Below are positions 7,015 to 33,518 of a DNA stretch of 34,561 nt, piece by piece. The stretch spans positions 1 to 34,561 of the forward strand of contig CAZWYB010000002.1 in assembly GCA_964637745.1 (NCBI GenBank), given 5' to 3'. A model generated the notes under the pieces. That model had not been told where the DNA came from. It was given only the letters and a program-made list of their open reading frames with translations, and did no database searches. Within the stretch, counting starts at the first letter, position 1. Every line of letters starts with the position of its first letter. A program made the translations under genes and the position numbers. The stretch comes from an uncultured Pseudomonadota bacterium (GTDB taxonomy: Bacteria; UBA10199; JACPAL01; GCA-016699445).

Positions 7015-7120
7015 GAGTCCCCCTTGTGTCGGGAGACTTAAATAGCAAGTACCATGCCATGACTCACAAAAAACATACATTTATAAGTATTTAATTTTAT
7101 TAACTATTTTATATGTAAGC

Positions 7121-7169: not shown

Positions 7170-7177
7170 AAAGAGAG

Positions 7178-8506: not shown

Positions 8507-8530
8507 CTCAATTAAGCTCCTTTTTTATCT

Positions 8531-10948: not shown

Positions 10949-11074
10949 GAGAAACTCCCCCCGGCTTGTGTTGAATAGGAATTATCGGCGAACTCACCGA
11001 CACCGGTTTCGTTTCTAATGGACATTTAAACAAATCTTATCATGAAAATGAGGACTTGCGGGTCTTTATTCCGT

Positions 11075-13210
11075 TCAGCAGCCATGCGGGCTTTCGCTTG
11101 CCCCACAGGTCCACGAAGGGTTCAAGGTGCCGGCTTCTTTTCCGTCATAACCGATGGCGGTAAACGTGCATTCGATATCCGTATTCGATTGATGCCCCTT
11201 CAGCTCAAAATATTGCCAATCATAGGAACGCGGATCATTGGCGTCGAAGAAGACATCGTGATCCAGGCCGTCGGGACAATTCACCCGAATGTCTTTAACG
11301 TGCCTCGCCTGGAACCGGATCCCATAATCGGTGCTGCCGTATTCATACCAACACTCATTGTCCCAGGTAATGTCGCTGTTGCATCCGCTGAAGCCGACAT
11401 ACTTGCAGCTGTGGTGATTGGTCCCGCTGCAACTCCCCCACCAGGTGCCGTCGATCACGTCGAAGCGCACGTTGAAGGGTTTGTCGATCTTTTGGGGAGC
11501 CGTCACGTGGGAGCCGTCGTAGTCGTCAATGATCAGGATCCATTGCGTGGAGTAGTAGTTTCTAGTCATCAGGACGGAGCCGGAGATGGCCTCGCCCGCC
11601 TTCACGTCCACCTTCGGATCGGTCAGATCAAACGACACCGTTCCCCAAAATCCGAAAGGGTTTGAGGACGGATAAAACGTCATCTTCTTGGCCCCCGGAA
11701 TCGTCACATCCGATCCGCTCACCTTATGGAAGACGCTTCCCGCCTTCTCCTCCACCCAACAAGACCGCGAGAACCTTCCCACCATGGAGATATAGCCGGA
11801 CAGATCCAGGTCTTGAGGCGTCGTTCCTCTTTCCGTGGTGTAGTAACCGCCCTCCTGGAGCTTAGCCTGGATGCCTCCGCAAACGAGCTTATAAGTCTTC
11901 GTGTCGCTGCCTCCGGCGCCCGTGGCCGCGATCGTGAACTGGGGCGGAGAGGACGGCGTGAACGCGCAGGCGTTACGCAGATAGCTTCCTTGGCCGTCCA
12001 ACGGTAGCGGGGGGGCGGGCGGCTCGGCGGTCGTACAACCGGTCACCGCGATCGCCGATGCATTCAAGTAATCAAAACTGAGCGTCGCCTTTGGCTCCCG
12101 TTCGCTCGTCAGCCCTACCTTGATGTTTGAAACGGACGGGGCCGGGATATCGAAGTCCTTCTCATCGAACGTCCACACCCCGTCCTTGCCGTGGGCCGCG
12201 AGGATGAATTTGCCCTGGGGAACCAACAAGTCCGTGTAGAAAACGCCCGCGAGCCCGGCCGCTGTGAGATCGATCTTGCAGATCCGGCCTTCGCCCGCGG
12301 TCGGCGCGTAATTTTTACAATTGTCGGTCGAGGTATCGCACTTCTCGCCTTCGGCGAATTTTTTATATTCCGTAGCCCAATTTGGCATCACGGTGGTGAC
12401 GTCGTTGCCGACGTCGGTCGTCACGAGGTAGCGCGTGCCCGTCAGGACGCAGTCCGAATCGGCGACCGTGCGGTTGAAAGGCCCGTAAATATAGGCTTGG
12501 TCGGCATTCTCGATCTTGTAGTTCAGACGGATGGCGTTGAAACGCGCGGTCGGAGAGACGACCTTGCCCGTCGCATCGGGGCCCGTAACGACGAATTTCG
12601 CCGTCGCCGGAAGAGGCGGAGGCGGAACGGCGCAACTGCCGTCCGGTTTGCAAACCTGACCCGAGGGGCAATCGCCGTCGGCATGGCAGACGAAGGGCGG
12701 CGGCGAAGGAGGCGCCACGACCTCCACGCAAGAACCGCCCTGGCATTTCTTGCCCGCGATGCAATCCGAGTCTGCCGCGCATTCGGGGGTCGGAGGAGAC
12801 GGCGGACCGGCCGGGCCCGTATTTCCCGTCGCTCCTTGAGAGGCCGTCACCGGACTCAGATGAATTTTACAGAGAGAGATTGTCGCACCGTCTTTGGCGC
12901 CGCATGTCACCGCGTAATCCCCGGACGGCAGATTGGGGACCGTCACTCCCCCCTGAACGCTGTCGCACAAAAACGCAAAGGAGTCCGGTGCCGATCCGCT
13001 CAAGGGATGAAAAAAACCCGTACAATCCTTCTCGCACTGATCGACGGAGATCGGGACCGATCCTCCGCGAACGACCTCCGCTCCGGAGGCACAATCCGGA
13101 GCGGCGTTTAAATCTTTTGAAGCCGAACCCGTACCGGAACTCCCGTTGGAAGAGCCGCAACCGGCGGACAACAATAGAAAAAAAACGGCGATAATGACGT
13201 TCCGCATCAT
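11075..13210 (-). CDS. Cysteine-rich lipoprotein, paralog D (function unknown)
   Basis: ATG 13210 starts the ORF and the lipobox is LSAGC. It has the N-terminal domain ASKDLNAAPDC...CKIHLSPV, two 4-Cys modules (12632-12784) and the C-terminal motif CTFTAIGYDGKEAGTLNPSWTC. Confidence 0.85.
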   Translation of the reverse strand: MMRNVIIAVFFLLLSAGCGSSNGSSGTGSASKDLNAAPDCASGAEVVRGGSVPISVDQCEKDCTGFFHPLSGSAPDSFAFLCDSVQGGVTVPNLPSGDYAVTCGAKDGATISLCKIHLSPVTASQGATGNTGPAGPPSPPTPECAADSDCIAGKKCQGGSCVEVVAPPSPPPFVCHADGDCPSGQVCKPDGSCAVPPPPLPATAKFVVTGPDATGKVVSPTARFNAIRLNYKIENADQAYIYGPFNRTVADSDCVLTGTRYLVTTDVGNDVTTVMPNWATEYKKFAEGEKCDTSTDNCKNYAPTAGEGRICKIDLTAAGLAGVFYTDLLVPQGKFILAAHGKDGVWTFDEKDFDIPAPSVSNIKVGLTSEREPKATLSFDYLNASAIAVTGCTTAEPPAPPLPLDGQGSYLRNACAFTPSSPPQFTIAATGAGGSDTKTYKLVCGGIQAKLQEGGYYTTERGTTPQDLDLSGYISMVGRFSRSCWVEEKAGSVFHKVSGSDVTIPGAKKMTFYPSSNPFGFWGTVSFDLTDPKVDVKAGEAISGSVLMTRNYYSTQWILIIDDYDGSHVTAPQKIDKPFNVRFDVIDGTWWGSCSGTNHHSCKYVGFSGCNSDITWDNECWYEYGSTDYGIRFQARHVKDIRVNCPDGLDHDVFFDANDPRSYDWQYFELKGHQSNTDIECTFTAIGYDGKEAGTLNPSWTCGASESPHGC

Positions 13211-13285
13211 GATGATTTCACCCTTTATCGTTGTATTTCAACTTATCGGCCGATCGGGGCACCCAAGTTGCCCCGCCTGCCACCC

Positions 13286-14662
13286 TTAAGGGGATGCGTG
13301 AGGGGCGGGCAGGATCCAGTCCGCATGCCCGAACCAGGGATAATCGACCTCGGCGAGATTGATATTGGGGTCGATAAGGGCCTTGGGGAGGCCGAAGTTC
13401 AAGGTGACGGAAGTCTCCGCCTTGATGATGGGGCGCTCCATCCCTTCCGACTGCAGCTTTCTTTTCAAAAATTGAGCGTATTGCCAGATCAGATCCGGTT
13501 TGACGGCCATTTCGTCGATCTGAGAGGGGATCAGGTCCTCGCTCAGATCAATGTCTTTCGTTTCATTTGTCTTAGGGTCGGTCAAAGTCAGACGGATCAG
13601 ACCTTGTTTATGGCGCAGTTTCATCCGCCACGAAAAATAATGCCCCTCTTCCGTCCAGGCGACATCGCCCGCAAAGAGCCAATGCCGTAAAGGGATCAGG
13701 ATCTGCAGCAGGAGATACAGTGAAATCAGGCAGACGGCCAAACTTCCGCCTACCCTTCCCTCCGGCGATCGTTCCCTCGGAATAAACGGAGCGGACGAGC
13801 CGAAAGCTGACCGCAGGCGACCGAAGAAGCGGCGCGGCGTGTCGGGTTCAAGAAAGACGACCGTCGCGGCGATCATCAAGTAAGGAAAGACGCCGATGTG
13901 AAAGAGCCAATTATTCGTCACGTTGAAAAACAGGACGCCGCAAACGGCGAAGGGCCGGGTCTTCTTCCAGCAGAGAAGAAATCCGATCGTCAGATCGAAG
14001 AGGAGCCCTCCGTAACAAAAGAACCAGACGCCCTTCTCCACCCCCAGGAAACTGGCCAGGGTTGAGGTCTCTTGAAGCTGTTGGAGCCAATGCCGGATCG
14101 GCTCCCCATGCAGCCAATCGCGGTTCAGCTTCGCTACGCCGCCGAAGAAATAGACGAGAAAAAATTGGGCGCGAAGGAGAAAGACGTTCCAGAACGGGAC
14201 CCGCCCCGTCGCGACTTGGGGACGACGCCATCCGTCGAGGGAGGCCCATCTCTGGGCGCCCATCGGAATCAACAAGAGAGCGATCAGCGCGGTCAGATAA
14301 TAATGGTTGTTGTAAAGGGTCTTATCGAGAAGAAAAAAGTACAGATAGGAAATAAAAAAAACGACGCCGGCGACCCGATAAAAAAGTCCAAGACAGAGGC
14401 AAAGCGCGGCCAGGGCGATGACCGCTAGATGCCAGTAGATGGCGTTTCCCGGCAAAGGACGCACAAAGGGAAGAAAGGGAAAATGAAAAAAGGGATGGGA
14501 AAAGTACGGCGCCTCATGGATCCAGAATCGGAAGACCTGGTCCACCATGATCGCGCCAAAGAGGATGCGGAAGACGGCCAACGAAGAGGCGTCGACGGGG
14601 CGGTTTAAGAGGCCATTCCATTTCTTAAGGCGTGTGGCCGTCGTTGTGGAAGCCGTCGTCAT
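13286..14662 (-). CDS. Vitamin-K-dependent gamma-carboxylase-like polytopic membrane protein (HTTM/VKGC family)
   Basis: It aligns along its whole length with human GGCX as I remember that sequence: LNRPVDASSLAVFRILFG, FLLDKTLYNNHYYL, VPFWNVFLLRAQFFLVYFFGGVAKLNRDW, WTEEGHYFSWRM, PDLIWQYAQFL and VTLNFG..ALIDPNINL. The track ORF starts at 14728. I chose ATG 14662 because it cuts the overlap with the upstream gene from 104 nt to 38 nt. Confidence 0.85.
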   Translation of the reverse strand: MTTASTTTATRLKKWNGLLNRPVDASSLAVFRILFGAIMVDQVFRFWIHEAPYFSHPFFHFPFLPFVRPLPGNAIYWHLAVIALAALCLCLGLFYRVAGVVFFISYLYFFLLDKTLYNNHYYLTALIALLLIPMGAQRWASLDGWRRPQVATGRVPFWNVFLLRAQFFLVYFFGGVAKLNRDWLHGEPIRHWLQQLQETSTLASFLGVEKGVWFFCYGGLLFDLTIGFLLCWKKTRPFAVCGVLFFNVTNNWLFHIGVFPYLMIAATVVFLEPDTPRRFFGRLRSAFGSSAPFIPRERSPEGRVGGSLAVCLISLYLLLQILIPLRHWLFAGDVAWTEEGHYFSWRMKLRHKQGLIRLTLTDPKTNETKDIDLSEDLIPSQIDEMAVKPDLIWQYAQFLKRKLQSEGMERPIIKAETSVTLNFGLPKALIDPNINLAEVDYPWFGHADWILPAPHASP

Positions 14663-17171
14663 CGCAGTGGAATTTGAATGTATAATTGGTGGTCGGCGGC
14701 GTGCGGTCCTCCATGGCGCACCAGCCATTCACGCAGGTTTGCCCGGCTCCGCAACCCGAATCGCAGGTGGAATTCGTCGATCGCCAATAATGCCCGATGA
14801 GGGTGCACGAAAACTGATCGCCCCAGTCGTCGTCCTGCCCCCCTCTATGGAAGTCAGCAGCCATCGTGCCGTCGAGAGAAGGTTCGAGGTTCGGCTGCTG
14901 GCTGACTGTCGGAGAGCCCTTGTCGCAGGCGGGTTCGATGTGGGTCAGGTTCGTCGCATGCCAATGGAGGGTGGCGGTGACGTGAACGTCCGAATCGTCA
15001 TTGCAATCGCCACCGTCGCCGTTGACCGTATAAAAACCCGGCCCTTCGACATACTCAACCGTAAGCGTCCCCGGCTGGGGCGGCGGGGTCGGAAAGGGAG
15101 CGTAGATGTCGTTCGCAGCCGGAAGAATGGAGCCATCGAGATCCTTCACGACGAACTTATAGCCCGTGCAGGGACTGTTGTTCCTGGGGAGCTTGACGTT
15201 TTCAAGCTTCAGGGTCGAACCGAAGACGCTGACGTCTCCGTTGTTCCCCGTGGGCAAAGCGCCTTTCCAAGGGAAAATGTTGAACACCCCCGAGGTACCG
15301 CAAACGTTGAACTTGTTTCTGTCGAAGGCCTGGATCTCGAGAGACCCAACCCAAGGAACGTCTTTTTGCGCGACCTGATCGTAGTTTCCGGAATTATCGT
15401 CCCTCTTCTTGCTGATCGTGGCCTTGCGCAGGACGCCTCCCGAAAAGGAAAGTTTGCCTTGCTTGCTGCACTGATTCCAATTCCCGCAGGCGTTCGCCGC
15501 CCCGTTCGAGCAATCACAATGCCCCTCATTCCCGTCGAGAGCTCCGTTCTGGAATTGAGGGTATCCGGAACTGGGAGGATCCAACTCCACTTTGTAAGTT
15601 GCATCCTTGGAATCAGCGATACCTAATCCCGTCGCCCAGAATTCGATAACCTGGCTTTTGCTGTTCAAAGGACAATTCATCGTAAAAGACGCCAGATTTC
15701 CAAGCTTATCCGGAGTGTTTCCCGTCGGTGGCTCGCAACCCATGGGGGGCATGATCGGCACCGAAATGTTTTTCCCCGTGGCTGTCACTCGGATCTTCGG
15801 CGCATCGGTCTGTACATCGACGTTTGCGGTGAACGTCACGGGATCCACATCCACGGGATCCGAGTCCACCGCCTTCTCCAAGGTTCCGGCCTTCACATAG
15901 AGATGAAACTTCAATTTGTCCGCCAAAACCCGCGTATAGACAAACCCGCTCTTGACGAAGTGACCGGCCGCGTCCTTGGTCGTCATCACGCAAGCAGGAG
16001 GTTGATCACAAAGAAAGCAGGGCGTCGGCGGCGTGTAGCCGTGGCAATTTGAGCCGTCGTCTTTGCACTTCACCGCCGAATCCATATAAGTCTTCACCGC
16101 ATCATACGGGGCCGTTCCGGAAGTCATATCGCCCCCCAAGTTGGCCGCATTGGACTCGTTGCCGTTCACCAAAAGATACCGCGTATGCCCCAGCCCCCCT
16201 GCGAACATATCGTCGGGCTTGCCCTTGCATTCATCGCCCGGCGTGCCGCCGTCTATCGTAATCCGATAGAAACCGTCCGACCAGATCTGCAGATCGGTAA
16301 TGTCCTTGGCGTTGACCCCCGTCACGTTCCAGCTCACCTTGACCAAGCCCAGCCGCGTGTCGAATTTCTTATCGACGGTGAGGGTCGCATCAAAGGTCCC
16401 CAAAGGCTCGCAGGTCCCGGCGGTACAAGTCGTTTTTGACGAACAATCCGCATCGCTGGTACAGGACTGGGCCACGCAATGTCCTGTCGGAGAGCAGGTC
16501 GTCTTATCCCCCGTCGTACAATCCGCGTCCGTCACGCACTCCAAATCCACGCAGCTTCCCGCCTTGCATTTCTTTCCCGTAATGCAATCCGCGTTCGTCG
16601 TGCACGCCACGGGGCCGGCCGGCGCTGGCGTGCAGGTCCCGGACATGCATTTGTCGCCTGTAGGACAATCGGTATCGCTGGAACAGGTCGCCGTAGAACC
16701 CGTGCCGCCCGTTCCTCCCGCGGCGATCACGCACGAGCCACCCTGAAGGACTTCTCCGGGCGGGCAAGACGTCGTTTGCTGCGTCGGGGGCTTGATCGTG
16801 AATTGATCCGCAAGGATGGTCCTATGGCTGTCGTCGCAATTACCGCCTCCGCAGCAAAAAAGAGTCCCCGTCCCCTGGATCGACGAGGGCATCTGGATAT
16901 CGACGGGCGTATCTTTTGAGTTTGAGGAATCGGGACATTGATCCAAGTAAAATTGCTGTTTGTTCTTTTCGAAAAAGACCGTGCAATTATCGGGGCAGTC
17001 CTTGAGGTTGCATTTGACGGTCGTTCCGACGGCGGCCTGATTGGCATCGCAGGTCGTCAGCGCGCCGAGGTTTTTTGTACCCTTCCCTCCACCACCGCCA
17101 CCTCCCCCACCACCGCAGGAGCTAAGGAGCAAGAGACCGACGAAGAGAGGAAGGATGGCTGGACGGCCCAT
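14625..17171 (-). CDS. Cysteine-rich lipoprotein, paralog C (function unknown)
   Basis: ATG 17171 has AGGAGG 7 nt upstream (the track ORF starts at 17192). The lipobox LSSC is followed by a 10-residue poly-Gly run. About six 4-Cys modules lie at 16410-16766. The family C-terminal motif is present but interrupted by one extra Cys module. Confidence 0.85.
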   Translation of the reverse strand: MGRPAILPLFVGLLLLSSCGGGGGGGGGGKGTKNLGALTTCDANQAAVGTTVKCNLKDCPDNCTVFFEKNKQQFYLDQCPDSSNSKDTPVDIQMPSSIQGTGTLFCCGGGNCDDSHRTILADQFTIKPPTQQTTSCPPGEVLQGGSCVIAAGGTGGTGSTATCSSDTDCPTGDKCMSGTCTPAPAGPVACTTNADCITGKKCKAGSCVDLECVTDADCTTGDKTTCSPTGHCVAQSCTSDADCSSKTTCTAGTCEPLGTFDATLTVDKKFDTRLGLVKVSWNVTGVNAKDITDLQIWSDGFYRITIDGGTPGDECKGKPDDMFAGGLGHTRYLLVNGNESNAANLGGDMTSGTAPYDAVKTYMDSAVKCKDDGSNCHGYTPPTPCFLCDQPPACVMTTKDAAGHFVKSGFVYTRVLADKLKFHLYVKAGTLEKAVDSDPVDVDPVTFTANVDVQTDAPKIRVTATGKNISVPIMPPMGCEPPTGNTPDKLGNLASFTMNCPLNSKSQVIEFWATGLGIADSKDATYKVELDPPSSGYPQFQNGALDGNEGHCDCSNGAANACGNWNQCSKQGKLSFSGGVLRKATISKKRDDNSGNYDQVAQKDVPWVGSLEIQAFDRNKFNVCGTSGVFNIFPWKGALPTGNNGDVSVFGSTLKLENVKLPRNNSPCTGYKFVVKDLDGSILPAANDIYAPFPTPPPQPGTLTVEYVEGPGFYTVNGDGGDCNDDSDVHVTATLHWHATNLTHIEPACDKGSPTVSQQPNLEPSLDGTMAADFHRGGQDDDWGDQFSCTLIGHYWRSTNSTCDSGCGAGQTCVNGWCAMEDRTPPTTNYTFKFHCDDDGFHNDGHTP

Positions 17172-17297
17172 ATCAAGACCTCCTGAAATCAACCCCGGGT
17201 AGTTGTTTTCGGCATGTTACTGGCATGCAGTTTCGTCATCGGTAATTTAAGATGTCATCTTACCAGAACCGAAGGTGGATGAGTGATATTTTTTCAC

Positions 17298-19703
17298 TTA
17301 ATGCCTCGGATGGACTGCGCAGTTGTCATCGTTACCAGGGCATTCTTCCGAGCGCGTTCCAAGGCCGAGGCGTCCATGTCGGAATGTCGGCTCATGATCC
17401 CAACAACTGAACCAAAAACAGCTATGGGACATGACGCAAATTCTTGCGTCACAGTCGGAATATCCATAGGGAAGGGATACGTCGGGATACGAGACAGGAT
17501 CCCACGATTCGCAAACGAGTTGGCAATTCCTTCCCTCGGCTATCTGCCGGTCATCGATGGCGCCCGACCTCGTTTGATAGGTGGCGACGCCGTCGGTTTC
17601 GGAGGGATAGGAAATCGTGTGCCCGCAGGTGGAATACAGCCGTTTGCAATTCTGCGCGTTCGACCAATTCCAATGGTAACGCCTGGCATAAAGCGTGCCC
17701 CAGTTGTCCGTGTTGTCGCATTGATTGCCGCCGGGCCAACCGCCCCCGGCTCCGCCGTTATGGTCGGGGGTATATTGGCAGGCGGCGTTTTGCCACTCGG
17801 AGTTGTAATGCGAGACGGCCGCTGTCCATCCCCGATCCATCGGGTCGGCGCCTCCCTCCAACGACAAATGCGGAGGGAAAGGAAAACTTTTCAGCGACGG
17901 ATCCGACTGAAACAGACTTCCATCCGTATCATGTCCAACTATGGCATATTGCGTGCAATGGTGGGTCCTTCCAAGCCGGACCGGGCCGATCGGAGTGGTC
18001 GTGATCGAGGTCACCACATCACCGGCTCCACACTCCTCGGGAGGCCCATACCCTCCCCTCGTTCCAACCGGAGCAAAGGCCTTCACCTGAAGATCGCGGA
18101 CCCATGGGACAGTCACCGAGCTCTCATCGTGCCAGGATCCGTCATCCATGAGCTTGGAGACCGTACACGCGCGAGTGACGGAGGCATAGAAAGTGAGATC
18201 GACGGGCGTGTTGCAACTTTCCCACCAGTGATCCAAGGATGTCCCGGAGCACGACAACACGCCTCCCGGATCTCGCGCGCCGGGCGCGTAAATTTCGCCG
18301 CCGAGTCTTAAATTCGGTTGAGGGGCCTCGCAGTGGATACGGTATTGTTGCAACACGTTATCGGCGGTGTCCCCCATGGCCATAGCAACGATACTGACCG
18401 TCGCATCCTTTTGAAACGGACAACTTCCCGTGATGCTCGCCCGTCCGTCACTGGAGACGTCGTTCACCATGGTCGTCACGAGGCATCCCATGACCGCCAG
18501 GCGTTGAACAGTATGGGTCGCGTTCGCCTGCAACTCGATCTTGGGCTCGCGATCGCTCACCGTAACGCTAACGCCCGAGAACGACGGACGCTCCAGCGTG
18601 AATTCATGCGTCGTCGACCGCCATGTACCGTCCTCTCCTTGCGCCACCAGGGTATATTTCCCAGGCCACGCCAACTTGACGTAGAACGTCCCGCTCGCGG
18701 CCGACAGCTCCACGCGGCAGAAGGTGGCCGATCGATGCGCGTCGGGATGCCAATCGCGGCAGTTGCCGTCGGCTTCCACGCAGGCAGTCCCCGAATTATA
18801 AGGATGGTACGTGGCATAGACGGGCGCCCCTTCGACCAACGCATGCCCGTTCGGATCGGTCACGAGGCCTTCGTGCGTCGTACCGGTCACGGTCTCGCTG
18901 CAATCCGCCCTCGATGTGGGGAAATAGACGTATTTGGCCCGGAGGGTTCCTCCGCCTTGAATCTGGTAATTGACGTGTGCGAACCCGTAAAGATCGCGAA
19001 TGGCGTCGCTGCCGTCCAAAGAAACGCCGAAGGTCGTCGGCGTCGAAGACGCCTCGCGCACCCCGCAGGTGTGATCGGAGCGGCACACGTTGCCGCCCGT
19101 ACATTCGCTGTCGGCGTGGCAAGAGGTCGGCGTGGGTGTCGGCGTCGTCCCCGCCACACAGCTTCCACTGTGACAGACACGGCCGGACGCGCAATCGGCG
19201 TCGTCCACGCAGGTCGGCGTCGTCGCGCCGGGCGTGCTGTCCGAGGGGCGGATCTCCCCTCCTCCGCCTGCGGAGCACGTCCCCGCGCTGCAGGTCTGGC
19301 CGGCTCCGCAGTCGGTATCGGAGGAACAGGTTGAAGCCGCCCCGGGAACAATCTGGAAATTACGAGCGATCACAAAGGGCCCTTCCGTTCCGCGTCTCCA
19401 AATGAGATCGCCGGTGCCCGTCTGGGCGGGAAGCGTCAACGAAAGGCCGCGGTCGTTTTGATTGCAGTCGACAAAAAATTCCATCCGGCCTCGATCCAAA
19501 AAACAGCGGGAATCGGCGTCGAAATTGTCTTGAGGGCCGCATTGAATCGTCTGACCGGGTGTTCCCGTCGGAGGACACGAAGTCGCCGTTCCTTGAGGGG
19601 ATGTCGACGCCCCGCCGCTTTTTTTGGACGACGCGCAGGCGGCAAGACTGACGATGAATAAAAGAGCCAAAACGGCCCGGAATCTCGCAAGGTGGCACGC
19701 CAT
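17298..19703 (-). CDS. Cysteine-rich lipoprotein, paralog B (function unknown)
   Basis: ATG 19703 starts the ORF and the lipobox is LAAC. The N-terminal domain (CPPTGTPGQTIQC...FFVDC...GDLIWRRG..GPFVI) is clearly similar to that of 19824-22139. Three 4-Cys modules lie at 19065-19328. Confidence 0.85.
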   Translation of the reverse strand: MACHLARFRAVLALLFIVSLAACASSKKSGGASTSPQGTATSCPPTGTPGQTIQCGPQDNFDADSRCFLDRGRMEFFVDCNQNDRGLSLTLPAQTGTGDLIWRRGTEGPFVIARNFQIVPGAASTCSSDTDCGAGQTCSAGTCSAGGGGEIRPSDSTPGATTPTCVDDADCASGRVCHSGSCVAGTTPTPTPTSCHADSECTGGNVCRSDHTCGVREASSTPTTFGVSLDGSDAIRDLYGFAHVNYQIQGGGTLRAKYVYFPTSRADCSETVTGTTHEGLVTDPNGHALVEGAPVYATYHPYNSGTACVEADGNCRDWHPDAHRSATFCRVELSAASGTFYVKLAWPGKYTLVAQGEDGTWRSTTHEFTLERPSFSGVSVTVSDREPKIELQANATHTVQRLAVMGCLVTTMVNDVSSDGRASITGSCPFQKDATVSIVAMAMGDTADNVLQQYRIHCEAPQPNLRLGGEIYAPGARDPGGVLSCSGTSLDHWWESCNTPVDLTFYASVTRACTVSKLMDDGSWHDESSVTVPWVRDLQVKAFAPVGTRGGYGPPEECGAGDVVTSITTTPIGPVRLGRTHHCTQYAIVGHDTDGSLFQSDPSLKSFPFPPHLSLEGGADPMDRGWTAAVSHYNSEWQNAACQYTPDHNGGAGGGWPGGNQCDNTDNWGTLYARRYHWNWSNAQNCKRLYSTCGHTISYPSETDGVATYQTRSGAIDDRQIAEGRNCQLVCESWDPVSYPDVSLPYGYSDCDARICVMSHSCFWFSCWDHEPTFRHGRLGLGTRSEECPGNDDNCAVHPRH

Positions 19704-19823
19704 GAGTTTACCTCAGTGTACCACAGCCTGGAGCGGGGCTGTAGGAGTTTAGATTGTCAAAATTGGGGGCGTTTGAGTTATCGGCTGACAAGACCTGGCC
19801 GGTTGCGTCCTCTGTAAATCGCT

Positions 19824-22139
19824 TTATTGCCAGGCACATTGGGCGGGCGGCTCAAAGTTGGGATTCCGTTTCGTCTGTAAACCGTTACCCGATCCCGTCG
19901 CCTTGCCGTCAGGACCATCCTCGTAACAACTGCACTCCCACTGTTTATGTGGGATGGACACCTCTACCCTCGTTCCGTCGTAGTAGACGGCCCAGAACTG
20001 GCAGGAGAAATCCTGTTTCCAATCGCTCCAATATTTGTTTCGGATTCCATCGTCCGTAATATTGGCGGAAGGCACCGGGATATCGGTCGAAAGGATACCG
20101 CTCTGAGGTCCGTAATTCTTAGGGTCGGGCTTATCCCATTTCGAATAAACGATGATGTCAATGTCCGGCGTCTTTTCTCCCCCCAGGGCCAAACGATCAT
20201 AGGTCGCAATTTCACAATGGTACGCAAAATAACTGAGATGCTGTCCGCTCCAGGACCAAGCAATCGATGAGGACCCGTCGAAACAGGAATGTGTATCCTT
20301 CAGGTTGAGCGTCGGACTCAGGGGAGAGGGAGAAATGCTGAAAGAAGGATTATAAGGATGGCTCACGGGGTCGCTTTGATACGTCTTCCCGTCATAATCC
20401 TTGGCGACGGCGACCCAGCCCGTATGGCCGTAATCCCGATCCGCGACGAACTCCCCATTCCCGTTTTTCTTGGTCACTTCCTCCTTGAGGATCCAAGGAG
20501 CGGACTGCGGCTTGTAATTCGGAGTGAAGAGCGTTTTCTTGGCCATGCTCTTATTTGCGGTCGTGGTACGAACGGAAGAAGGATCCGTCGCTGCATAAAC
20601 GGATAACGAATCCACCCAGACAACTTCCTTGGAGGCAGCCGGTTTGACGGAGACGCCGTCCTTCTGAATGTCATAGGTACGGGAAACAGTCGGATGGAAA
20701 TTGATGGTTCCCGGATAATCACAATTATCCGGATCGTTCGCGGCTCCCGTCCCGGAACACGTTCCCCCTCCCTCGTTCAAGGTCACCGCCGGTTTGTGGA
20801 GGACCACCGAGAACGTATGGGACACGGCATTCTTGGGATCCAAACCGGAAGCAGCGATACCGATCGTCATGTTCGTCGAGAGCAAGCAGGTCGCAGAAAG
20901 CGTGCCGGAACCGTCTTTTGACAACGAGTTGAGCGTGTATTGAATTGAGGGGCAACCGGTCACCGCCGGAACGCTGGAGACGCCCGTATAGGTCGCCTGC
21001 AGGAGGACCTTCGGCTCGTTATAGGACAGGGAGACGGCGGCGTCGACGGTCGGGATATCCGGCGTCAACGTCAGCTCCGCGGTCTTCGTCGTTCCCGCCT
21101 CATCCGTCGCCACGATCACGAACTTTCCGTTTGCAACCAGGAGCCGCGAGGCGAAATCGCCTGCCGCCAGGGGCTTCCCGTTTGCGTCGACCGGATTCAT
21201 CAGACACGTCGGCGCCGCAGGCGCACCGGCTGCCGGCGGGGAAAATCCCTGATAGCAATCATTGGCGTTGACGCACGGCTTGCCCGTGGTCAGACCTTTC
21301 GACTCGGCCTCCTGAAAATTCGTGGACGGCTGCGCCGGCGGAGTGGGAAGAGGTCCAAAATCCCCTCCTCCGGATTTCGCCGGATTGACCGTGAGCCATG
21401 ACGCCGTTTTATCGTCGCCGCAGTTGGTATCCTTATCGCTCCGGTTCCAGGGGCCGACCAAGGCCACCGATTTCAAACCCTGTCCCCCTTCGACGTGAAA
21501 CGTAAAGGTGTAAAGGCCCAATCGGGTTTTGGTCTCTTCTTGGGCCTCGAGAGTCACTTTGAGTTCTTGAGGGGTTCCCGTCGTCGGCGAAGTCGTCCCG
21601 GTCGAACCGGACCCGGATGGAGAAGGCGTCCCGGAAGCCACACACGTTCCGGAGGTCTTGTCGCAAATCCTGCCGCTGGCGCAGTCGGAATCGCTCAAAC
21701 AATTCACCGTGCTCTCCGTGGGAGTCACGGGTTGTCCTCCGGAAGCGGCGGGAGCCGAAGCCGAAGCGGAGGCCGGAGCGATCGTGATCCCCTTTTGAAT
21801 GACGAAGGGCCCCGCCGACCCTTGGCGGAAGATCAAGTCCCCCTTGCCCGCCAGGGCCGGAAGCGTCACTTGAAGACCTTTATCGGTTTCCTGGCAATCG
21901 ACGAACAGCTCTCTCTGCCCCTGATCCAAGAAACACTGGCTGTCGCTCGTGAAGTTGTCGGGTTTCGCGCAGAGGATCTGTTCGCCCGGCGTCGCCGTCG
22001 TGGGACAGGCCGAGAGCGATGCCGTGCCGCCACCGACGGGCGAAGGCCCCTTGTTGGCGGAACCGCCGCCGCAGGAGGCGGCAAACACCAGCACACACGT
22101 CAGGACCAAGACTTTTTGAAACGGGCTATAAAATCTCAT
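19824..22139 (-). CDS. Cysteine-rich lipoprotein, paralog A (function unknown)
   Basis: ATG 22139 starts the ORF and the lipobox is AASC. The N-terminal domain is homologous to paralog B. One 4-Cys module lies at 21642-21701. The C-terminal motif is FSCQFWAVYYDGTRVEVSIPHKQWEC. Confidence 0.85.
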   Translation of the reverse strand: MRFYSPFQKVLVLTCVLVFAASCGGGSANKGPSPVGGGTASLSACPTTATPGEQILCAKPDNFTSDSQCFLDQGQRELFVDCQETDKGLQVTLPALAGKGDLIFRQGSAGPFVIQKGITIAPASASASAPAASGGQPVTPTESTVNCLSDSDCASGRICDKTSGTCVASGTPSPSGSGSTGTTSPTTGTPQELKVTLEAQEETKTRLGLYTFTFHVEGGQGLKSVALVGPWNRSDKDTNCGDDKTASWLTVNPAKSGGGDFGPLPTPPAQPSTNFQEAESKGLTTGKPCVNANDCYQGFSPPAAGAPAAPTCLMNPVDANGKPLAAGDFASRLLVANGKFVIVATDEAGTTKTAELTLTPDIPTVDAAVSLSYNEPKVLLQATYTGVSSVPAVTGCPSIQYTLNSLSKDGSGTLSATCLLSTNMTIGIAASGLDPKNAVSHTFSVVLHKPAVTLNEGGGTCSGTGAANDPDNCDYPGTINFHPTVSRTYDIQKDGVSVKPAASKEVVWVDSLSVYAATDPSSVRTTTANKSMAKKTLFTPNYKPQSAPWILKEEVTKKNGNGEFVADRDYGHTGWVAVAKDYDGKTYQSDPVSHPYNPSFSISPSPLSPTLNLKDTHSCFDGSSSIAWSWSGQHLSYFAYHCEIATYDRLALGGEKTPDIDIIVYSKWDKPDPKNYGPQSGILSTDIPVPSANITDDGIRNKYWSDWKQDFSCQFWAVYYDGTRVEVSIPHKQWECSCYEDGPDGKATGSGNGLQTKRNPNFEPPAQCAWQ

Positions 22140-24928: not shown

Positions 24929-25374
24929 CAATCTGTCCTGGCCTTCCCGGCCTTCCTGGCGGCTTTCTCCGCCAAAGCCAAAAGCTCGTTGGTCTTCCGC
25001 CACATCCGGTCCCGGTCCTTCTTCTTTTTATCCCGGTATCCCAGGAGGTGGAGCAGGCCGTGAATGGCCAGGATGATCATTTCCGTCCGGGTCGCATGGC
25101 CCTGTTCCCTTGCCTGACGTCTCGCGGTGTCCGCGGAGATGAGAACATCCCCCAAAACTCCCCTTTCCTTCATTTCGAACGCGATCACATCCGTTGCATA
25201 ATCGTGGCGAAGATATTTTGCGTTATAGCGCCGGATCGCCGCGTCCGAAACGAAAAGAAAATTGACCTCCTGATCGTCGACACCCAAAGACGCGATGATC
25301 TTTCGCAAGGAGGCGCGCAGGCCCTTGACGGGGATTCTCACGGACGGATTCTGATTTTGAATCGTAATCGTCAT
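24928..25374 (-). CDS. ybeY: rRNA maturation endoribonuclease YbeY
   Basis: 148 aa with the zinc-binding motif HGLLHLLGY. Its start overlaps the upstream kinase stop (ATGA). Confidence 0.9.
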   Translation of the reverse strand: MTITIQNQNPSVRIPVKGLRASLRKIIASLGVDDQEVNFLFVSDAAIRRYNAKYLRHDYATDVIAFEMKERGVLGDVLISADTARRQAREQGHATRTEMIILAIHGLLHLLGYRDKKKKDRDRMWRKTNELLALAEKAARKAGKARTD

Positions 25375-26921
25375 GAAGAAGAGACTTTCGGCCCTTTTGA
25401 AGGGGACGCTGGGAGATCCGCACGGAAAGTCGCTGTGAAAAGCGCCCCCTTCCCCGGTTCGCTTTTCGCGGTGATCGTCCCCCCATGGTTCTGAAGAATC
25501 AGCCTGCAGACGGCGAGCCCCACGCCCGAGCCTCCCGTCTTCCAGACGCCCCGTTGCGTCGCCTGGCCGAACATTTCAAAGATCTTCTGATGATCCTCGG
25601 GGTTGATCCCGACTCCGTCGTCCTCGACCTCGATTGTGATTTGCTCTTTTGAAGACGCAAGCGCGACGTGAATCTTTCCTTTTTGATCGGTGAACTTGAC
25701 GGCGTTGCTCAGCAGATTGATCATCACTTGCTTGATCTTATCCGCATCGCAGACCGCGTAAAGAGGGCGATCGGGAAGTTCCAGCGTGAATTGAATTTGC
25801 TTCCCCGCAATATCGGGCTTCATCACCTCGCAGGCCTCCCGGACGACTTCCGCCATATCGGCCCTTTCGAAGACCATCTGCATCTTTCCCGCCTCCAGGC
25901 GCGAGTAATCGAGGACATTGTTGATGAGGCGGGCCAGCCGGTCGATGTTCCTCTTCGTAATCGTAAGCGTCTCTCTCTGGCCCTCGTTGATGGGCCCGTC
26001 TATGCCGTCCAAGAGGATGTCGATTCCGGACTTCATGGAAGACAGCGGGGTCCTGAGTTCATGGGACACCATGGAGACGAAGGACGACTTCATCTGGTTT
26101 ACGCGCTGCAGCTCTTCGTTCGCACGCCTCACTTGCTCCTCGGTGTGCTTCCGTTCCGTGATGTCGACGACGGAACTGATGACGAAGGCCCCTTCATCGG
26201 TTTCCATGGGATTCAAACCGATCTCGACCGGAAATTCGCTGCCGTCCTTCCTCCGGCCGAAGAGATCGCGTCCGGCGCCCATCGCGCGGGTCTGGGGATC
26301 TTGGAAAAAATCACGACGGTATTCGGGATGCCTCGCCCGGAACCTTTGAGGGACCATCATGTCGATGGAGCGTCCGACAAGCTCCTCCTTTTCATATCCG
26401 AACATCTTCTCGATCTGCGAATTGGCAAGGATGATCTTCCCCTCGTCGTCCACCATGATCATGCCGTTGGGAGCCGCTTCGAACGTCATTCGGAAACGCA
26501 TCTCGCTGCGCTTCAGTTGCGCCTCGTTCTTGATCGCCTTCAATTGGGCGGGGTTTGGAAAAGAAAGGGCGTCGGGAAGAAACGGCCAGATCGCGAAGGC
26601 CGTCGCGATGGAAACGAGCGCCGTCAACGCCTTAACGACCCCTTCGAGCCGGTAGGCTCCGTTCCACGTGGTCCAGACGGCCATAATGTGCGTGGTCCCA
26701 CAGGCAAAGATGAACGTGGCGAAGAGAACGAAGATCCAGCGGAAGGGAACGTCCTTCCGTTTCGTGATGAAGTAAAACAACGTGAGAGGGATCGAGTAAT
26801 AGGCGAGCGTGATGACGATGTCCGACGCCACATGCAGCCAAAGGATTTCCGGCTTCCAAAAATAGCAATGCCCGTGGGGCATGAAGTCGGCCGTAAAGAG
26901 ATTTTTGAGGAAATCGATCAT
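25371..26921 (-). CDS. Sensor histidine kinase: ethylene-binding-domain-like 3-TM sensor, PAS, HisKA, HATPase
   Basis: The kinase boxes are present: H-box HELRTPLSS, N-box NLLSNAVKFT, G1 DDGVGI and G2 GGSGVGLA. Residues 30-115 align without gaps across helices 1-2 to Arabidopsis ETR1 residues 21-106 as remembered. The ATGA overlap with the upstream gene stop supports the start. Confidence 0.88.
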   Translation of the reverse strand: MIDFLKNLFTADFMPHGHCYFWKPEILWLHVASDIVITLAYYSIPLTLFYFITKRKDVPFRWIFVLFATFIFACGTTHIMAVWTTWNGAYRLEGVVKALTALVSIATAFAIWPFLPDALSFPNPAQLKAIKNEAQLKRSEMRFRMTFEAAPNGMIMVDDEGKIILANSQIEKMFGYEKEELVGRSIDMMVPQRFRARHPEYRRDFFQDPQTRAMGAGRDLFGRRKDGSEFPVEIGLNPMETDEGAFVISSVVDITERKHTEEQVRRANEELQRVNQMKSSFVSMVSHELRTPLSSMKSGIDILLDGIDGPINEGQRETLTITKRNIDRLARLINNVLDYSRLEAGKMQMVFERADMAEVVREACEVMKPDIAGKQIQFTLELPDRPLYAVCDADKIKQVMINLLSNAVKFTDQKGKIHVALASSKEQITIEVEDDGVGINPEDHQKIFEMFGQATQRGVWKTGGSGVGLAVCRLILQNHGGTITAKSEPGKGALFTATFRADLPASPSKGPKVSSS

Positions 26922-30008: not shown

Positions 30009-30422
30009 CTAACGAGGGGCCGCTCCTCCCGCTCCTTTCTTGCCGGCCGCCGGCGGAGGGGTCTCGGCGGACACGTGCACCTTGAACTCCCTCCGGCGTC
30101 CGGAATTGTCGTAGTCGATCAGGAAAATTTCCTGCCAGGGTTCGATCAGCATCTTCATTTTTTCAAATGGCATCGCGAGCGACTTAGGCAGGAGGGTTCG
30201 GATGAGTCCCGTTGCGATATGAGGTTCCAGGGCCTTCTTCACTTCGTCCAGACGTTCCGCGGAATCGAAAACCGCCAGCCCCGCCCCGGGATTCGAAATC
30301 ACGATCGTTGCGGTACCGTTCTCCGTATTCGCCTCCTTAACGACCCGGCGGACCTCATGAATGATCTTCAAGATGTCCAAACCCTTGGTCGTGTCGACGA
30401 AGAAGTTCTTCAATAAGATCAT
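30009..30422 (-). CDS. Small conserved protein, possibly a divergent YjbQ/UPF0047-like fold
   Basis: The 137-aa ORF starts at ATG 30422 and ends 9 nt before phoH. The C-terminal PWQEIFLIDYDNSGRRREFKVHV resembles the YjbQ GTWQ...R.R motif, but the conserved His residues are not evident. Confidence 0.6.
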   Translation of the reverse strand: MILLKNFFVDTTKGLDILKIIHEVRRVVKEANTENGTATIVISNPGAGLAVFDSAERLDEVKKALEPHIATGLIRTLLPKSLAMPFEKMKMLIEPWQEIFLIDYDNSGRRREFKVHVSAETPPPAAGKKGAGGAAPR

Positions 30423-30625: not shown

Positions 30626-30654
30626 TTGACTTTGTCCCGTCGGATGGAGAAAAT
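30626..30654 (+). promoter_or_regulatory. Candidate sigma-70-type promoter for the riboswitch leader
   Basis: TTGACT (30626-30631), a 17-nt spacer, then GAAAAT (30649-30654). This would put the transcription start about 30-40 nt before the aptamer. It is a pattern match only. Confidence 0.3.
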
Positions 30655-30694
30655 CTATCCAACTCGAAGTACAAAGGAGAACACCGAGTTCTTG

Positions 30695-30765
30695 AAAAAG
30701 GCAAACCCGTCGTGAGGCGGGGACGCAAAGCTTCTGGTCTCATTCGCCGACGTTAAAGAGGCGGA
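30695..30765 (+). promoter_or_regulatory. GEMM-I (c-di-GMP-I class) riboswitch aptamer
   Basis: The RNA reads AGGCAAA-CCCGUC-GUGA-GGCGGG-GACGCAAAGCU. This matches the remembered V. cholerae Vc2 core GGGCAAA-CCAUUC-GAAA-GAGUGG-GACGCAAAGCC position for position, with a 6-bp stem capped by a GNRA tetraloop. A second hairpin follows (GCUUCU...AGAGGC). The outer boundaries are approximate. Confidence 0.8.
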
Positions 30766-30817
30766 TGAGGCAGCAGGGCTGCCAAGGGAAGAAACGACTG
30801 ATCGTTTTCTATGGCAG

Positions 30818-30858
30818 CCCATCTCTCGGCAAAAGGCCGGAGGTGGGTTTTTTATTTT
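30818..30858 (+). terminator. Intrinsic terminator forming the riboswitch expression platform
   Basis: CCCATCTC-t-CGGC aaaag GCCG-GAGGTGGG gives 12 bp with one bulge and one G-U pair, followed by TTTTTTATTTT. The T-tract ends 18 nt before ATG 30876. Confidence 0.8.
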
Positions 30859-30875
30859 GGACAAACGGAGGCCTT

Positions 30876-33518
30876 ATGAACATCTCGTTGAAGACGGTGC
30901 TCTTACCGATCGTCATCTTCATCAACTTTCTTGGGGCCTCGGTGTCCTTTGCGGCGAGTCTCGGAACCGGAAGGGTGACTGATGTGACGGCCGGTGATAA
31001 CGGGTGTAAGACGGTCAGCGGCGATTCAACGCAGTTCTACAACGTCCAGCAATCAAAAACCTATAAGGTCACCTTGAGTAACGTAACGGAGTGCTCAGGC
31101 GGCACGATTGGCATCCTGGTCAAGAATACGGACAACGGCAACCAATGCCTGACGGCATCATCGGGATCCTCCTCCGGCACCTATACTTTTACGGTCACGA
31201 TGCCGCCGGACGCCTGCAATACCTATCCGATCCAGTATTGCGTCACCGCGTGCAAAGCCTCCACGGGTTTCTTAGCCACCCGGTCCGATGGAGGGGGTTT
31301 TGGCGCCCATCTGAGGGCCGGTAATTTTGATGCGGATTGCAATTATCTTTCACAGGATACGGATTGTACGGGCCATCAAGACGGCGATCCCTGTGACGAC
31401 GGTAACGCCTGTACAACGGATGATCAGTATCAAAACGGAATCTGCGTCGGAAGCCCTCTAAATTGCGATGATTCCAATGCTTGCACCACGGATAGATGCG
31501 ATCAAACAGCGGGTTGTATCCATACCGACGTCGTGTGCTTGACCGATGACAACGATGCCTGCACGACAAACGGCTATTGCGACAAACAAACAGGGTGCGT
31601 CAACCCGACCCCCATCAGTTGCGATGATCAGGACGTTTGCACCCTTGATAGCTGCAATCCCGCCACCGGATGCCTCAATGTGAAGGATACCTGCGACGAC
31701 CATATTGAATGCACGGCGGATAGCTGTGTCCAAGGACAAGGGTGTCTACACGTTCCTGAGAACAGTTCCTGCGATGACAAGAATCCTTGCACTAAGGATA
31801 TTTGCGACCCCCAAGTCGGCTGCCGACATGAGCCAGTTGAGGTGGGAACGGTTTGTCGCGAGGCGGCCGGGGATTGCGACGTCGCCGAGATGTGCGACGG
31901 TACGGGCGCGCCCTGTCCTCAAGATTCTTTCAAGCCGGTGGATGCGGTTTGCCGTCCTGCAGCCGGGGAGTGCGACAAAGCCGAGACATGCACGGGGTCT
32001 TCGCCCCTCTGTCCCGCGGACGCGGTAAAGCCCGCGGAGACGTCCTGCGGCGATGACGGCAATGTCTGTACTCGTGACATCTGCGACGGCAGCAGCGTCA
32101 GTTGCACGCACCCAGCCGGCAATGGAGGGACCGTCTGCCGTCAGGCCTCTGATCTTTGCGATCAGAATGCGCTCTGTACGGGGACAAGTTCCGTTTGTCC
32201 TTCCAATCCTTTTAAACCCGCCAGCGTCGTTTGCCGAGGGGCTCACGGCGTTTGTGATACGCCCGAAAGTTGCACGGGGTCCTCGGCGGCCTGTCCGGCG
32301 GATGCGTTTCTACCGAATACGGTGACGTGTCGTCCCTCGGCCGGTGTGTGCGACACGCCCGAATCCTGCACGGGCAACGGCCCCGATTGTCCGAACGATG
32401 TCTTTAAACCTTCGACGACGGTCTGTCGTCCCGCGGCGGGGGAATGCGACGTGCCGGACAACTGCTCCGGGCTGGGAGCCGCCTGCACCGATGACGCTAA
32501 GAAGGCTCCCAACACAGCTTGCACCGATGACGGCATTTTCTGCACGGCTGATCTCTGCGATGGGACGCACGACGCCTGCCAACATCCGACGGCGCCGAAG
32601 GACGGCGTAGTTTGCGACGACAGCAACGCATGTACTCAGACGGATCTTTGCCAAAGTGGCTCCTGCGTCGGATCAAACCGCATCCCGGGCGTTGTCTCGG
32701 GAATGAAATACTATGATGCCAACGCCAACGGCCAATGGGATTCAGGGGAGGTCGGGATCGGATCTTGGAGTATCTCTTATAGCGGCCCTGTCTCGGCTAC
32801 AGAGCTCACCAATGCCGGCGGTCTCTTCTCAAATTCCTTGGCAAACGGGGCGTACACCTTTAAGGAAATGACTTCTTCGGGATGGCAACAGACCGGAAAC
32901 CTGATCAATCAGACTTCCGTCAGTCAGACCGGAACCCCCCTCGGCAACGCCTCCTGCCAACTCAAAGGAGATAAGTCCTATTCGTGTCAGGTGGCCGAGT
33001 GCAACACGGTGGCGGGGGTCGATTTCGGCAACCTCTGTCTCGGCTCCGGAGGCGGTCTGACGCTGGGCTTCTGGTCGAACAAGAACGGACAGGCTCTTTT
33101 TTCAAATAGCGATCTGGCGGCGATGGTCGGTTTAAATCTCCGCAATGCGAACGGCAGCGCATTTGATCCAACAAGTTACACCGCGTTTAGAAACTGGATT
33201 CTGAGCGCTACGGCAACGAATATGGCCAACATGCTGTCGGCCCAATTGGCGGCGATGAAATTGAACGTCCGCCATAATTTCGTCTCGGGGAACGCCCTCA
33301 TCTACGCACCCGGCGCCAACAGCGCGAACGGCAACGGGTACGCGACGGTCAATGCCGTGATGGCCGAGGCGGACGCCTCCCTCGCGGCGAACGGGAATAC
33401 GGTCAAGTCGGACGCAACACGGTCCTACCAGGAGGCATTGAAAAATGCCCTGGACAACGCGAACAACAATAGGAATTTCGTTCAGGCGGGCCCTAACTCC
33501 TGCGGCCCACATCTTTGA
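30876..33518 (+). CDS. Secreted multi-repeat cysteine-rich protein (CTDC-like and disintegrin-like repeats, SdrD-B/Cna-B-like domain, unknown C-terminal domain)
   Basis: ATG 30876 has GGAGG 5 nt upstream and opens a classical signal peptide (MNISLKTVLLPIVIFINFLGASVSFAAS). The track ORF start at 30765 would read through the terminator. Confidence 0.85.
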   Translation: MNISLKTVLLPIVIFINFLGASVSFAASLGTGRVTDVTAGDNGCKTVSGDSTQFYNVQQSKTYKVTLSNVTECSGGTIGILVKNTDNGNQCLTASSGSSSGTYTFTVTMPPDACNTYPIQYCVTACKASTGFLATRSDGGGFGAHLRAGNFDADCNYLSQDTDCTGHQDGDPCDDGNACTTDDQYQNGICVGSPLNCDDSNACTTDRCDQTAGCIHTDVVCLTDDNDACTTNGYCDKQTGCVNPTPISCDDQDVCTLDSCNPATGCLNVKDTCDDHIECTADSCVQGQGCLHVPENSSCDDKNPCTKDICDPQVGCRHEPVEVGTVCREAAGDCDVAEMCDGTGAPCPQDSFKPVDAVCRPAAGECDKAETCTGSSPLCPADAVKPAETSCGDDGNVCTRDICDGSSVSCTHPAGNGGTVCRQASDLCDQNALCTGTSSVCPSNPFKPASVVCRGAHGVCDTPESCTGSSAACPADAFLPNTVTCRPSAGVCDTPESCTGNGPDCPNDVFKPSTTVCRPAAGECDVPDNCSGLGAACTDDAKKAPNTACTDDGIFCTADLCDGTHDACQHPTAPKDGVVCDDSNACTQTDLCQSGSCVGSNRIPGVVSGMKYYDANANGQWDSGEVGIGSWSISYSGPVSATELTNAGGLFSNSLANGAYTFKEMTSSGWQQTGNLINQTSVSQTGTPLGNASCQLKGDKSYSCQVAECNTVAGVDFGNLCLGSGGGLTLGFWSNKNGQALFSNSDLAAMVGLNLRNANGSAFDPTSYTAFRNWILSATATNMANMLSAQLAAMKLNVRHNFVSGNALIYAPGANSANGNGYATVNAVMAEADASLAANGNTVKSDATRSYQEALKNALDNANNNRNFVQAGPNSCGPHL
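31392..31844 (+). repeat. Six tandem ~25-aa repeats CDDxNxCTxDxCxxxxGC (Dictyostelium CTDC / Myxococcus Cys-rich-repeat-like)
   Basis: Read from the translation (aa 210-360 of the track ORF). Three more copies are interspersed downstream, up to 32672. Confidence 0.8.
31845..32495 (+). repeat. Seven tandem ~30-aa repeats CRxxxGxCDxxExCxGxSxxCPxDxxxP (ADAM/disintegrin-like)
   Basis: Read from the translation, for example VCRPAAGECDKAETCTGSSPLCPADAVKP and TCRPSAGVCDTPESCTGNGPDCPNDVFKP. Confidence 0.8.

Follow-up and report, generated by a model that had tools for sequence, protein, structure and literature searches.

Cyclic-dinucleotide riboswitches of the GEMM-I type are exemplified by Vc2 from Vibrio cholerae, whose highly conserved positions have been compiled (PMC3764141) and whose ligand contacts map to positions G20, A47, and C92 (PMC3764141; PMC4744006). 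In Clostridioides difficile, class I c-di-GMP riboswitches function as transcriptional OFF switches, one of which precedes a gene listed as encoding a calcium-binding adhesion protein (PMC11477304). The G20A mutant of Vc2 binds cGAMP, and A14 constitutes a ligand contact in the Gs1761 RNA. GEMM-Ib RNAs selective for cGAMP carry an adenine at position 20, and their Geobacter representatives have been reported as ON switches upstream of genes for extracellular electron transfer. A further variant class, c-di-GMP-I-GGC, was reportedly described by Weinberg and coworkers in PNAS in 2017; we know of no ligand for it.

The element analyzed here is located on a stretch of 34,561 nucleotides (the window), which constitutes an entire NCBI metagenome-assembled contig from an uncultured bacterium. 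Alignment and folding models suggest that it is a c-di-GMP riboswitch controlling the gene of a secreted cysteine-rich repeat protein by transcription attenuation, most likely as an OFF switch, a reading to which a probability of about 0.72 is assigned. It is very likely that the element combines a GEMM-I aptamer and a platform of the terminator type. The analysis establishes family membership by covariance-model score, which bases occupy the contact positions, that three alternative helices exist and are significant, and which way the predicted shift goes; the ligand, the kinetics, and how large the effect would be in vivo are inferred. The leader region is the divergent intergenic space between yjbQ (30009-30422, minus strand, start at 30422), the neighbor upstream of the riboswitch, and an open reading frame of 880 codons (30876-33518, plus strand), the ATG of which (30876-30878) follows a GGAGG ribosome-binding site (30867-30871) and opens a frame extending to 33518. 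A consensus scan of the region retrieved a candidate sigma-70-like promoter on the plus strand (30626-30654; TTGACT, 17 nt, GAAAAT) with 9 of 12 consensus matches, a score at which 0.7 sites are expected by chance in the region; it hints at a transcript start near 30661. The idea that the terminator described below serves an upstream gene was rejected since yjbQ lies divergently on the opposite strand.

The 880-residue product starts with a segment resembling a signal peptide (MNISLKTVLLPIVIFINFLGASVSFA/AS); it further comprises cysteine-rich repeats, a domain weakly similar to SdrD-B, and a C-terminal region without assignment. Pfam matches were obtained for Dicty_CTDC (6.7e-21) and Disintegrin (1e-20), with SdrD_B (2e-3) remaining below the cut-off, and searches of this product against NCBIfam and PDB gave no match. 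Its repeats are common to thousands of proteins; the exact protein sequence was found on this contig only. The protein may be an adhesin. The GC content of the gene region (0.52–0.60) does not set it apart from its neighbors, and the LysS and PhoH proteins encoded in the window are 75–89% identical to proteins from metagenome-assembled genomes (MAGs) and 65–73% identical to proteins labelled ‘Deltaproteobacteria bacterium’. Elsewhere in the window (4888-22139, minus strand), six large open reading frames (442–855 codons) match no significant Pfam family and at most DUF7107 below the cut-off, three of them displaying weak matches to Myxo_Cys_RPT (TIGR04201). They flank a gene resembling HTTM/vitamin-K-dependent gamma-carboxylases (13286-14728), and the region may be a cluster in which genes for secreted cysteine-rich proteins are grouped with that of an enzyme modifying them; the Rfam scan of the whole window placed no riboswitch before these frames. 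Likewise on the minus strand, a histidine kinase gene (25371-26921; ETR1_N, PAS, HisKA, and HATPase domains, with an ethylene-receptor-like N-terminal domain) lies between pgpH and lnt, whereas four relatives (L137–L140) possess the operon yjbQ-phoH-pgpH-ybeY-lnt-prfB. Among the listed open reading frames of at least 80 codons, no ybeY candidate was found between pgpH and lnt of the window.

The initial annotation of this DNA had proposed a GEMM-I-type cyclic-dinucleotide aptamer upstream of the gene for the repeat protein, and both the assignment and the placement, which is within the 5′ leader, have been borne out. A covariance-model scan of the whole window (Rfam cmscan) yielded RF03167 (c-di-GMP-I-GGC, clan CL00126) at 30691-30787 on the plus strand, at 70.9 bits against a gathering score of 59 (E = 4.9e-15). 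This is the sole GEMM-clan match in the window, and nothing else in the leader reached a meaningful score. A second family of clan CL00126—presumably RF01051—exceeds its own gathering score on the same bases and is hidden by clan competition. The aptamer lies in sense orientation, with 88 nt between its end and the ATG at 30876, and shares its 3′ strand with the expression platform. Folded in isolation, 30691-30787 adopts a minimum free energy (MFE) structure of −41.4 kcal/mol (z = −4.1) that is identical to the consensus fold of the family, and none of 200 shuffled sequences folds as well.

In the Rfam alignment, P1 (CUUG/CAAG) is formed by 30691-30694 and 30783-30786, its 3′ strand reaching to 30786/7. 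J1/2 (30695-30700) ends with G30700, the equivalent of G20 in Vc2, and leads into the P2 helix (30701-30726), which carries C30724 (C44). J2/3 supplies A47-A49 (30727-30729), P3 pairs 30729-30739 with 30769-30780 and bears an upper 12-bp extension, and J3/1 consists of G30781 and C30782 (C92). The three-helix junction is thus complete, with P1, a P2 hairpin closed by a GNRA-type GUGA loop, and a P3 helix from which A30772 and G30773 (G83) bulge out unpaired. The core had been likened to Vc2 almost position for position; indeed, Vc2 numbering carries over to the 5′ half at a constant offset of 30680, without insertions or deletions from G20 to A49. All motifs quoted in support of that likeness, and of the pairings discussed below, are found where they had been placed on the plus strand: GGCAAACC at 30700-30707, GGACGCAAAGC at 30721-30731, GGCAGC at 30769-30774, GCTGCC at 30778-30783, GGGCTGCC at 30776-30783, and GGCAGCCC at 30813-30820. 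Likewise confirmed is the 6-bp stem (30706-30711/30716-30721, including one G·U pair) with its GUGA loop (30712-30715).

The bases of the window agree with the conserved set of Vc2 (PMC3764141) at G20, C22, A23, A25, G32, A35, G42, C44, G45, A47-A49, G83, and C92, the offset being fixed in the 5′ half. Hence, the ligand-contact bases G30700, A30727, and C30782 (G20, A47, and C92, respectively) are all present, together with A30728, A30729, C30724, and G30773 (A48, A49, C44, and G83, respectively). The tertiary contact between the GNRA loop and an 11-nt receptor in P3, as found in Vc2, has no counterpart: P3 is a continuous helix (UCUCAUUCGCC/GGCGGAUGAGG) devoid of a receptor of the CCUAAG/UAUGG type. 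This receptor is also absent from GYRA-loop aptamers of other genomes, and its absence is a subtype feature that provides no ground for exclusion from GEMM-I.

The expression platform begins within the aptamer itself. An intrinsic terminator had been predicted to follow the aptamer, with its 5′ arm at 30818-30825 and a T-run at 30848-30858, and a strong one is found there (30818-30858, plus strand; −23.6 kcal/mol, z = −4.5). Its stem of 12 bp is composed of 8 bp (30818-30825/30840-30847), a bulged U30826, and 4 bp (30827-30830/30836-30839) below an AAAAG loop, and its tail is the U6AU4 tract UUUUUUAUUUU (30848-30858). A simple terminator scanner found nothing at 30818-30858, probably because of the bulged uridine. 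Upstream of the terminator, a linker hairpin of 7 bp with a CUGA loop (30791-30808) appears in the MFE structures of transcripts ending at 30811 and 30820; it separates the aptamer from the complementary strand and becomes the apical part of an antiterminator hairpin. The pairing of GGGCUGCC with GGCAGCCC suggested for this antiterminator is real and extends by one base pair, GGGCUGCC(A)/(U)GGCAGCCC. Its 5′ strand GGGCUGCCA (30776-30784) is a perfect 9-nt complement of its 3′ strand UGGCAGCCC (30812-30820), the helix belongs to the MFE structure once transcribed, and it overlaps the terminator base, the last three cytidines of UGGCAGCCC (30818-30820) also serving as the lowest part of the 5′ arm of the terminator.

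The 5′ strand of the antiterminator is made up of the last five nucleotides of the P3 3′ strand (30776-30780), G30781, C30782 (C92), and the first two nucleotides of the P1 3′ strand (30783-84). In other words, it is the ligand pocket itself, and pairing and pocket formation are mutually exclusive. A search of both strands of the 34.5-kb window finds the corresponding 9-mer TGGCAGCCC at two places only, namely the two partner strands, where 0.17 occurrences are expected. Among 120 GEMM-I aptamers from other genomes—which serve as background for this feature only, the diversity of their platforms making a crude ON/OFF classification uninformative about polarity—not one is followed within 160 nt by a complement of at least 9 nt to its own 3′ end. 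A translational mechanism was considered as well and rejected, since the GGAGG ribosome-binding site is located downstream of the terminator and participates in no competing helix.

Folding of growing transcripts indicates how these helices might succeed one another. In the series of MFE structures, the aptamer persists up to 30811, is replaced by the antiterminator once 30820 has been made, and does not return through 30847. In the antiterminator state, the terminator lacks its bottom CCC:GGG pairs, leaving three unpaired guanosines between the hairpin and the U-tract. Pair probabilities in the unconstrained ensemble are 0.00 for P1 and 0.97–1.00 for the antiterminator core (30781-84:30812-15), and those of the three bottom terminator pairs vary with the transcript end from 0.08 to 0.94. 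Enforcing the aptamer as a stand-in for bound ligand raises these bottom pairs to 0.96–1.00.

According to the proposed mechanism, the aptamer (30691-30787) would be made first and, being the MFE structure until about 30811, would leave the ligand time to bind while about 25 nt more are transcribed. In the absence of c-di-GMP, the newly synthesized UGGCAGCCC would then invade the aptamer and pair with GGGCUGCCA, that is, with the base of P3, with C92, and with the first nucleotides of the 3′ strand of P1. The resulting 9-bp helix would cap the 30791-30808 hairpin and hold the three cytidines of the terminator stem bottom; the shortened terminator hairpin would come to lie 3 nt from the U-tract, and polymerase would read through into the gene. 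Upon binding of c-di-GMP, G30700 would engage one guanine and C30782 the other, with A30727 stacked between them, locking P1 and P3. The strand 30812-30820 would thereby be left free, the full 12-bp terminator would form beside the U-tract, and transcription would stop. Since the antiterminator 5′ strand belongs to the aptamer, ligand binding is predicted to remove the competitor of the terminator and OFF polarity is expected, a direction that the models make probable.

Within the folding model, the direction of this shift—ligand favoring the complete terminator—appears robust; its amplitude does not. Antiterminator and terminator contest only 3 bp, and in some transcript contexts the equilibrium model predicts that the terminator forms to a substantial extent even when no ligand is bound, with bottom pairs reaching 0.85–0.94. 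In the same model, the aptamer state becomes dominant only if granted a bonus of about 8–10 kcal/mol, which exceeds a simple RT ln([L]/Kd) at micromolar ligand concentrations. The switch must therefore be kinetic or make use of tertiary contacts outside the energy model.

The opposite polarity had been put forward, as speculation, in the initial annotation. There, a GGCAGC/GCUGCC hairpin (30769-30783) was taken to act as an anti-antiterminator, and c-di-GMP was proposed to free GGGCUGCC for pairing with GGCAGCCC, which would disrupt the terminator and switch the gene on. The two hexamers are indeed complementary, and adhesins are commonly induced by high c-di-GMP, for example via the class II riboswitches of C. 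difficile. The hairpin of the two hexamers is also the MFE structure of 30769-30860 folded in isolation, but only under this condition, in which the 5′ half of P3 has been cut away; its probability amounts to 4e-3 at aptamer length and falls to between 5e-10 and 4e-6 in longer transcripts, with 1e-6 or less for the full leader. Moreover, the ON assignment rested on an aptamer closing helix ending near 30766-30770, whereas the Rfam alignment and the MFE structure both place the P1 3′ strand at 30783-30786/7. Nucleotides 30769-30780 belong to P3, C30782 is C92, and 30783-86 are part of P1, so the bases of the supposed anti-antiterminator and the antiterminator 5′ strand (30776-30784) are integral to the ligand-bound aptamer. 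Ligand would thus sequester GGGCUGCC rather than release it, and the full terminator is what forms when the aptamer is enforced (0.96–1.0), which makes an ON switch improbable. It is likewise conceivable that the element does not switch at all, being a constitutive attenuator or a recently acquired, decaying leader, with the gene regulated elsewhere. The notable terminator formation in the absence of ligand in equilibrium folding would fit such an element, as would the lack of an orthologous copy in four syntenic relatives and two protein homologues, which leaves purifying selection not demonstrable. Against this stand the intactness of every conserved core base and the perfect 9-nt complement, which joins precisely the 3′ end of the aptamer to the base of the terminator and would hardly arise by chance. 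In addition, the aptamer, antiterminator, and full-terminator states are nearly isoenergetic (−75.3 versus −75.9 kcal/mol), as expected of a working switch, with the proviso that the aptamer energy of this comparison is to be disregarded, two P1 pairs (30693-30785 and G30694-A30784) being shifted by one. A non-switching leader accordingly appears unlikely, and the OFF switch remains the preferred reading.

A different objection concerns the ligand. RF03167 is the best-scoring Rfam model, position 91 is a guanosine, which recurs in the RF03167 consensus and among the contacts G74-C75-C76 of the Geobacter cGAMP riboswitch, and the GUGA loop lacks an 11-nt tetraloop receptor; the element might thus be a specificity variant sensing something other than c-di-GMP, either as a member of c-di-GMP-I-GGC or as a cGAMP or promiscuous sensor. 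The letters ‘GGC’ we take to denote positions 20, 47, and 92 in the sense of Weinberg and coworkers (2017), in agreement with the printed RF03167 model consensus. This consensus (...GGGACGCGAAgCc...) shows G in upper case at model position 37, the column of A47, whereas the window reads ...GGGACGCAAAGCU... and A30727 constitutes a mismatch; the triad is G-A-C instead of the G-G-C that defines the class. The meaning of the label was calibrated by scanning one genome per species for AAAGGCAAACC-N12-GGGACGC[A/G]AAGC-N30-60-GCTGCC, which retrieved at least 119 stretches from many phyla. Among the matches listed, 121 out of 121 aptamers possess A47, and GCUGCC (with G91) is frequent across many phyla. 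Rfam classified 19 of the 121, 11 as RF03167 and 8 as RF01051, nearly every one with a second clan family above threshold. The RF03167 label was attached to all eight GYRA-loop (GUGA or GCGA) aptamers and to three of the 11 with a GAAA loop; canonical A47 aptamers for which it won, at 59–78 bits, are those of L011, L012, L017, L030, L033, L061, L065, L094, L100, and L105. The label therefore goes with a GYRA loop and the absence of a receptor despite A47, and tracks the no-receptor subtype rather than the binding site. A genuine G47 variant was sought and found at none of 140 loci; viral contigs contain one exact match, which Rfam does not recognize as a riboswitch. RF03167 as best match is hence not diagnostic here, and the window element, judged by its bases, is a canonical G-A-C aptamer. 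Given that position 20 is a guanosine (G30700), in contrast to the adenosine of GEMM-Ib, c-di-GMP is favored over cGAMP. A specificity variant is thus of low probability, and c-di-GMP is with good confidence the predicted ligand.

For automatic annotation, it follows that the c-di-GMP-I-GGC variant class will be over-called, and that a best match to this Rfam family does not provide evidence for altered specificity. A more speculative proposal, less likely still than the rivals weighed above, is that the window aptamer (no receptor, G91, a GUGA loop), despite its canonical triad, and the many canonical-triad aptamers filed by Rfam as c-di-GMP-I-GGC might together form a functional subclass differing in ligand selectivity or kinetics. 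Such a subclass could, for example, be cGAMP-promiscuous or possess a much weaker, faster-exchanging c-di-GMP site, and would in the present case repress a secreted cysteine-rich protein at high signal.

Related leaders were sought at several levels. The two best full-length homologues of the 880-residue protein for which DNA is available (P0014 and P0020, about 41–42% identity) have no GEMM element upstream, and four relatives sharing the yjbQ-phoH-pgpH-ybeY-lnt-prfB synteny (PhoH 82–85% identical) have other genes in the corresponding place, where a riboswitch is likewise absent. In another MAG, a 6S RNA gene (RF00013, 56.8 bits; L002, 2522-2694, plus strand) is located about 300 nt upstream of P0020. 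A metagenome scan for the aptamer core together with GGGCUGCC and GGCAGCCC returned 15 matches, none of them related to the window in platform sequence. As no orthologous leader was found at syntenic loci, next to protein homologues, or in metagenomes, both the platform and this copy of the aptamer are without covariation support. By reading of their sequences, six of the 15 metagenomic leaders form the terminator directly from GGGCUGCC and GGCAGCCC followed by a U-tract, which corresponds to ON logic, and another six place the complement within the terminator 5′ arm and loop, corresponding to OFF logic like that of the window element.

Two metagenomic GEMM-I leaders, L122 and L136, present the GGCAGCCC complement, then CCCUCCG ... 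CGGAGG and an AUG, but lack a U-tract, which suggests a translational platform sequestering the Shine-Dalgarno sequence on the same aptamer 3′ strand. Seven loci (L126, L128, L129, L131 at 4229-4570, L132, L135, and L074, the last from a Solibacteraceae MAG) have in common a c-di-GMP-I aptamer whose terminator is of the direct-competition (ON) type. All seven contain a conserved open reading frame of 10 codons about 40 nt downstream, occurring with synonymous codon differences and in the versions MKANFAVIWV, MKENYAVIWI, MKENYGVIWI, MKEMYGVIWV, and MKATFAVIWI. At six of these loci, the next open reading frame encodes a RiPP-precursor-like peptide of about 30–34 residues in which the motif LNEL..IEELE.K(I/L)(A/S)PS is conserved while the tail varies; L074 has a different 30-residue frame in its place. 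At L131, the next gene encodes a protein of 837 residues with an HD-GYP-type HD domain, a GAF domain, and a GGDEF domain.

The proposed riboswitch would add the gene of a secreted cysteine-rich disintegrin/Dicty-repeat protein, from an uncultured ‘Deltaproteobacteria’-type lineage, to the c-di-GMP regulon. OFF polarity predicts that the protein is made at low c-di-GMP, which is the less intuitive direction ahead of an adhesin-like protein and argues against a simple reading as a biofilm adhesin.

The element thus shares features with each of the systems introduced above. With Vc2 (crystal structures 3IRW/3MXH; RF01051), it has in common the three-helix architecture, J1/2 and J2/3 cores that are identical (GGCAAACC ... 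GGGACGCAAAGC) and free of indels between G20 and A49, the ligand contacts G20/A47/C92, and the bases of the interhelical C44-G83 pair. It differs from Vc2 in having a GUGA instead of a GAAA loop, a continuous P3 without the 11-nt tetraloop receptor and with a longer upper extension, and an intrinsic terminator as expression platform. Position 91 is a guanosine in the window and, presumably, an adenosine in Vc2. Like the class I riboswitches of Clostridioides difficile (Cd1 in the flgB leader, and those in the CD2797 and ppep-1 leaders), the element couples a GEMM-I aptamer to an intrinsic terminator such that ligand would promote termination, and some of the genes under class I control in that organism encode surface- or adhesion-related proteins (PMC11477304). 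However, those riboswitches reside in Bacillota and not in a lineage labelled ‘Deltaproteobacteria’, their platform sequence and cargo are unrelated, and the OFF polarity of the window element is a predicted one. The c-di-GMP-I-GGC class (RF03167) supplies the best model and resembles the element in its receptor-free, GYRA-type shape and in GCUGCC at the 3′ junction; in contrast to this class, the element retains A30727 in place of the defining G at A47. The 3′,3′-cGAMP riboswitches of Geobacter (GEMM-Ib; Gs1761, PDB 4YAZ) display the same fold, G-C-C at the J3/1-P1 junction, a terminator platform, and a deltaproteobacterial-type setting. They carry an adenosine (A14 in Gs1761) where the window has G30700, the G20 equivalent, and the element described here, located before the gene of a cysteine-rich repeat protein, is predicted to switch OFF.
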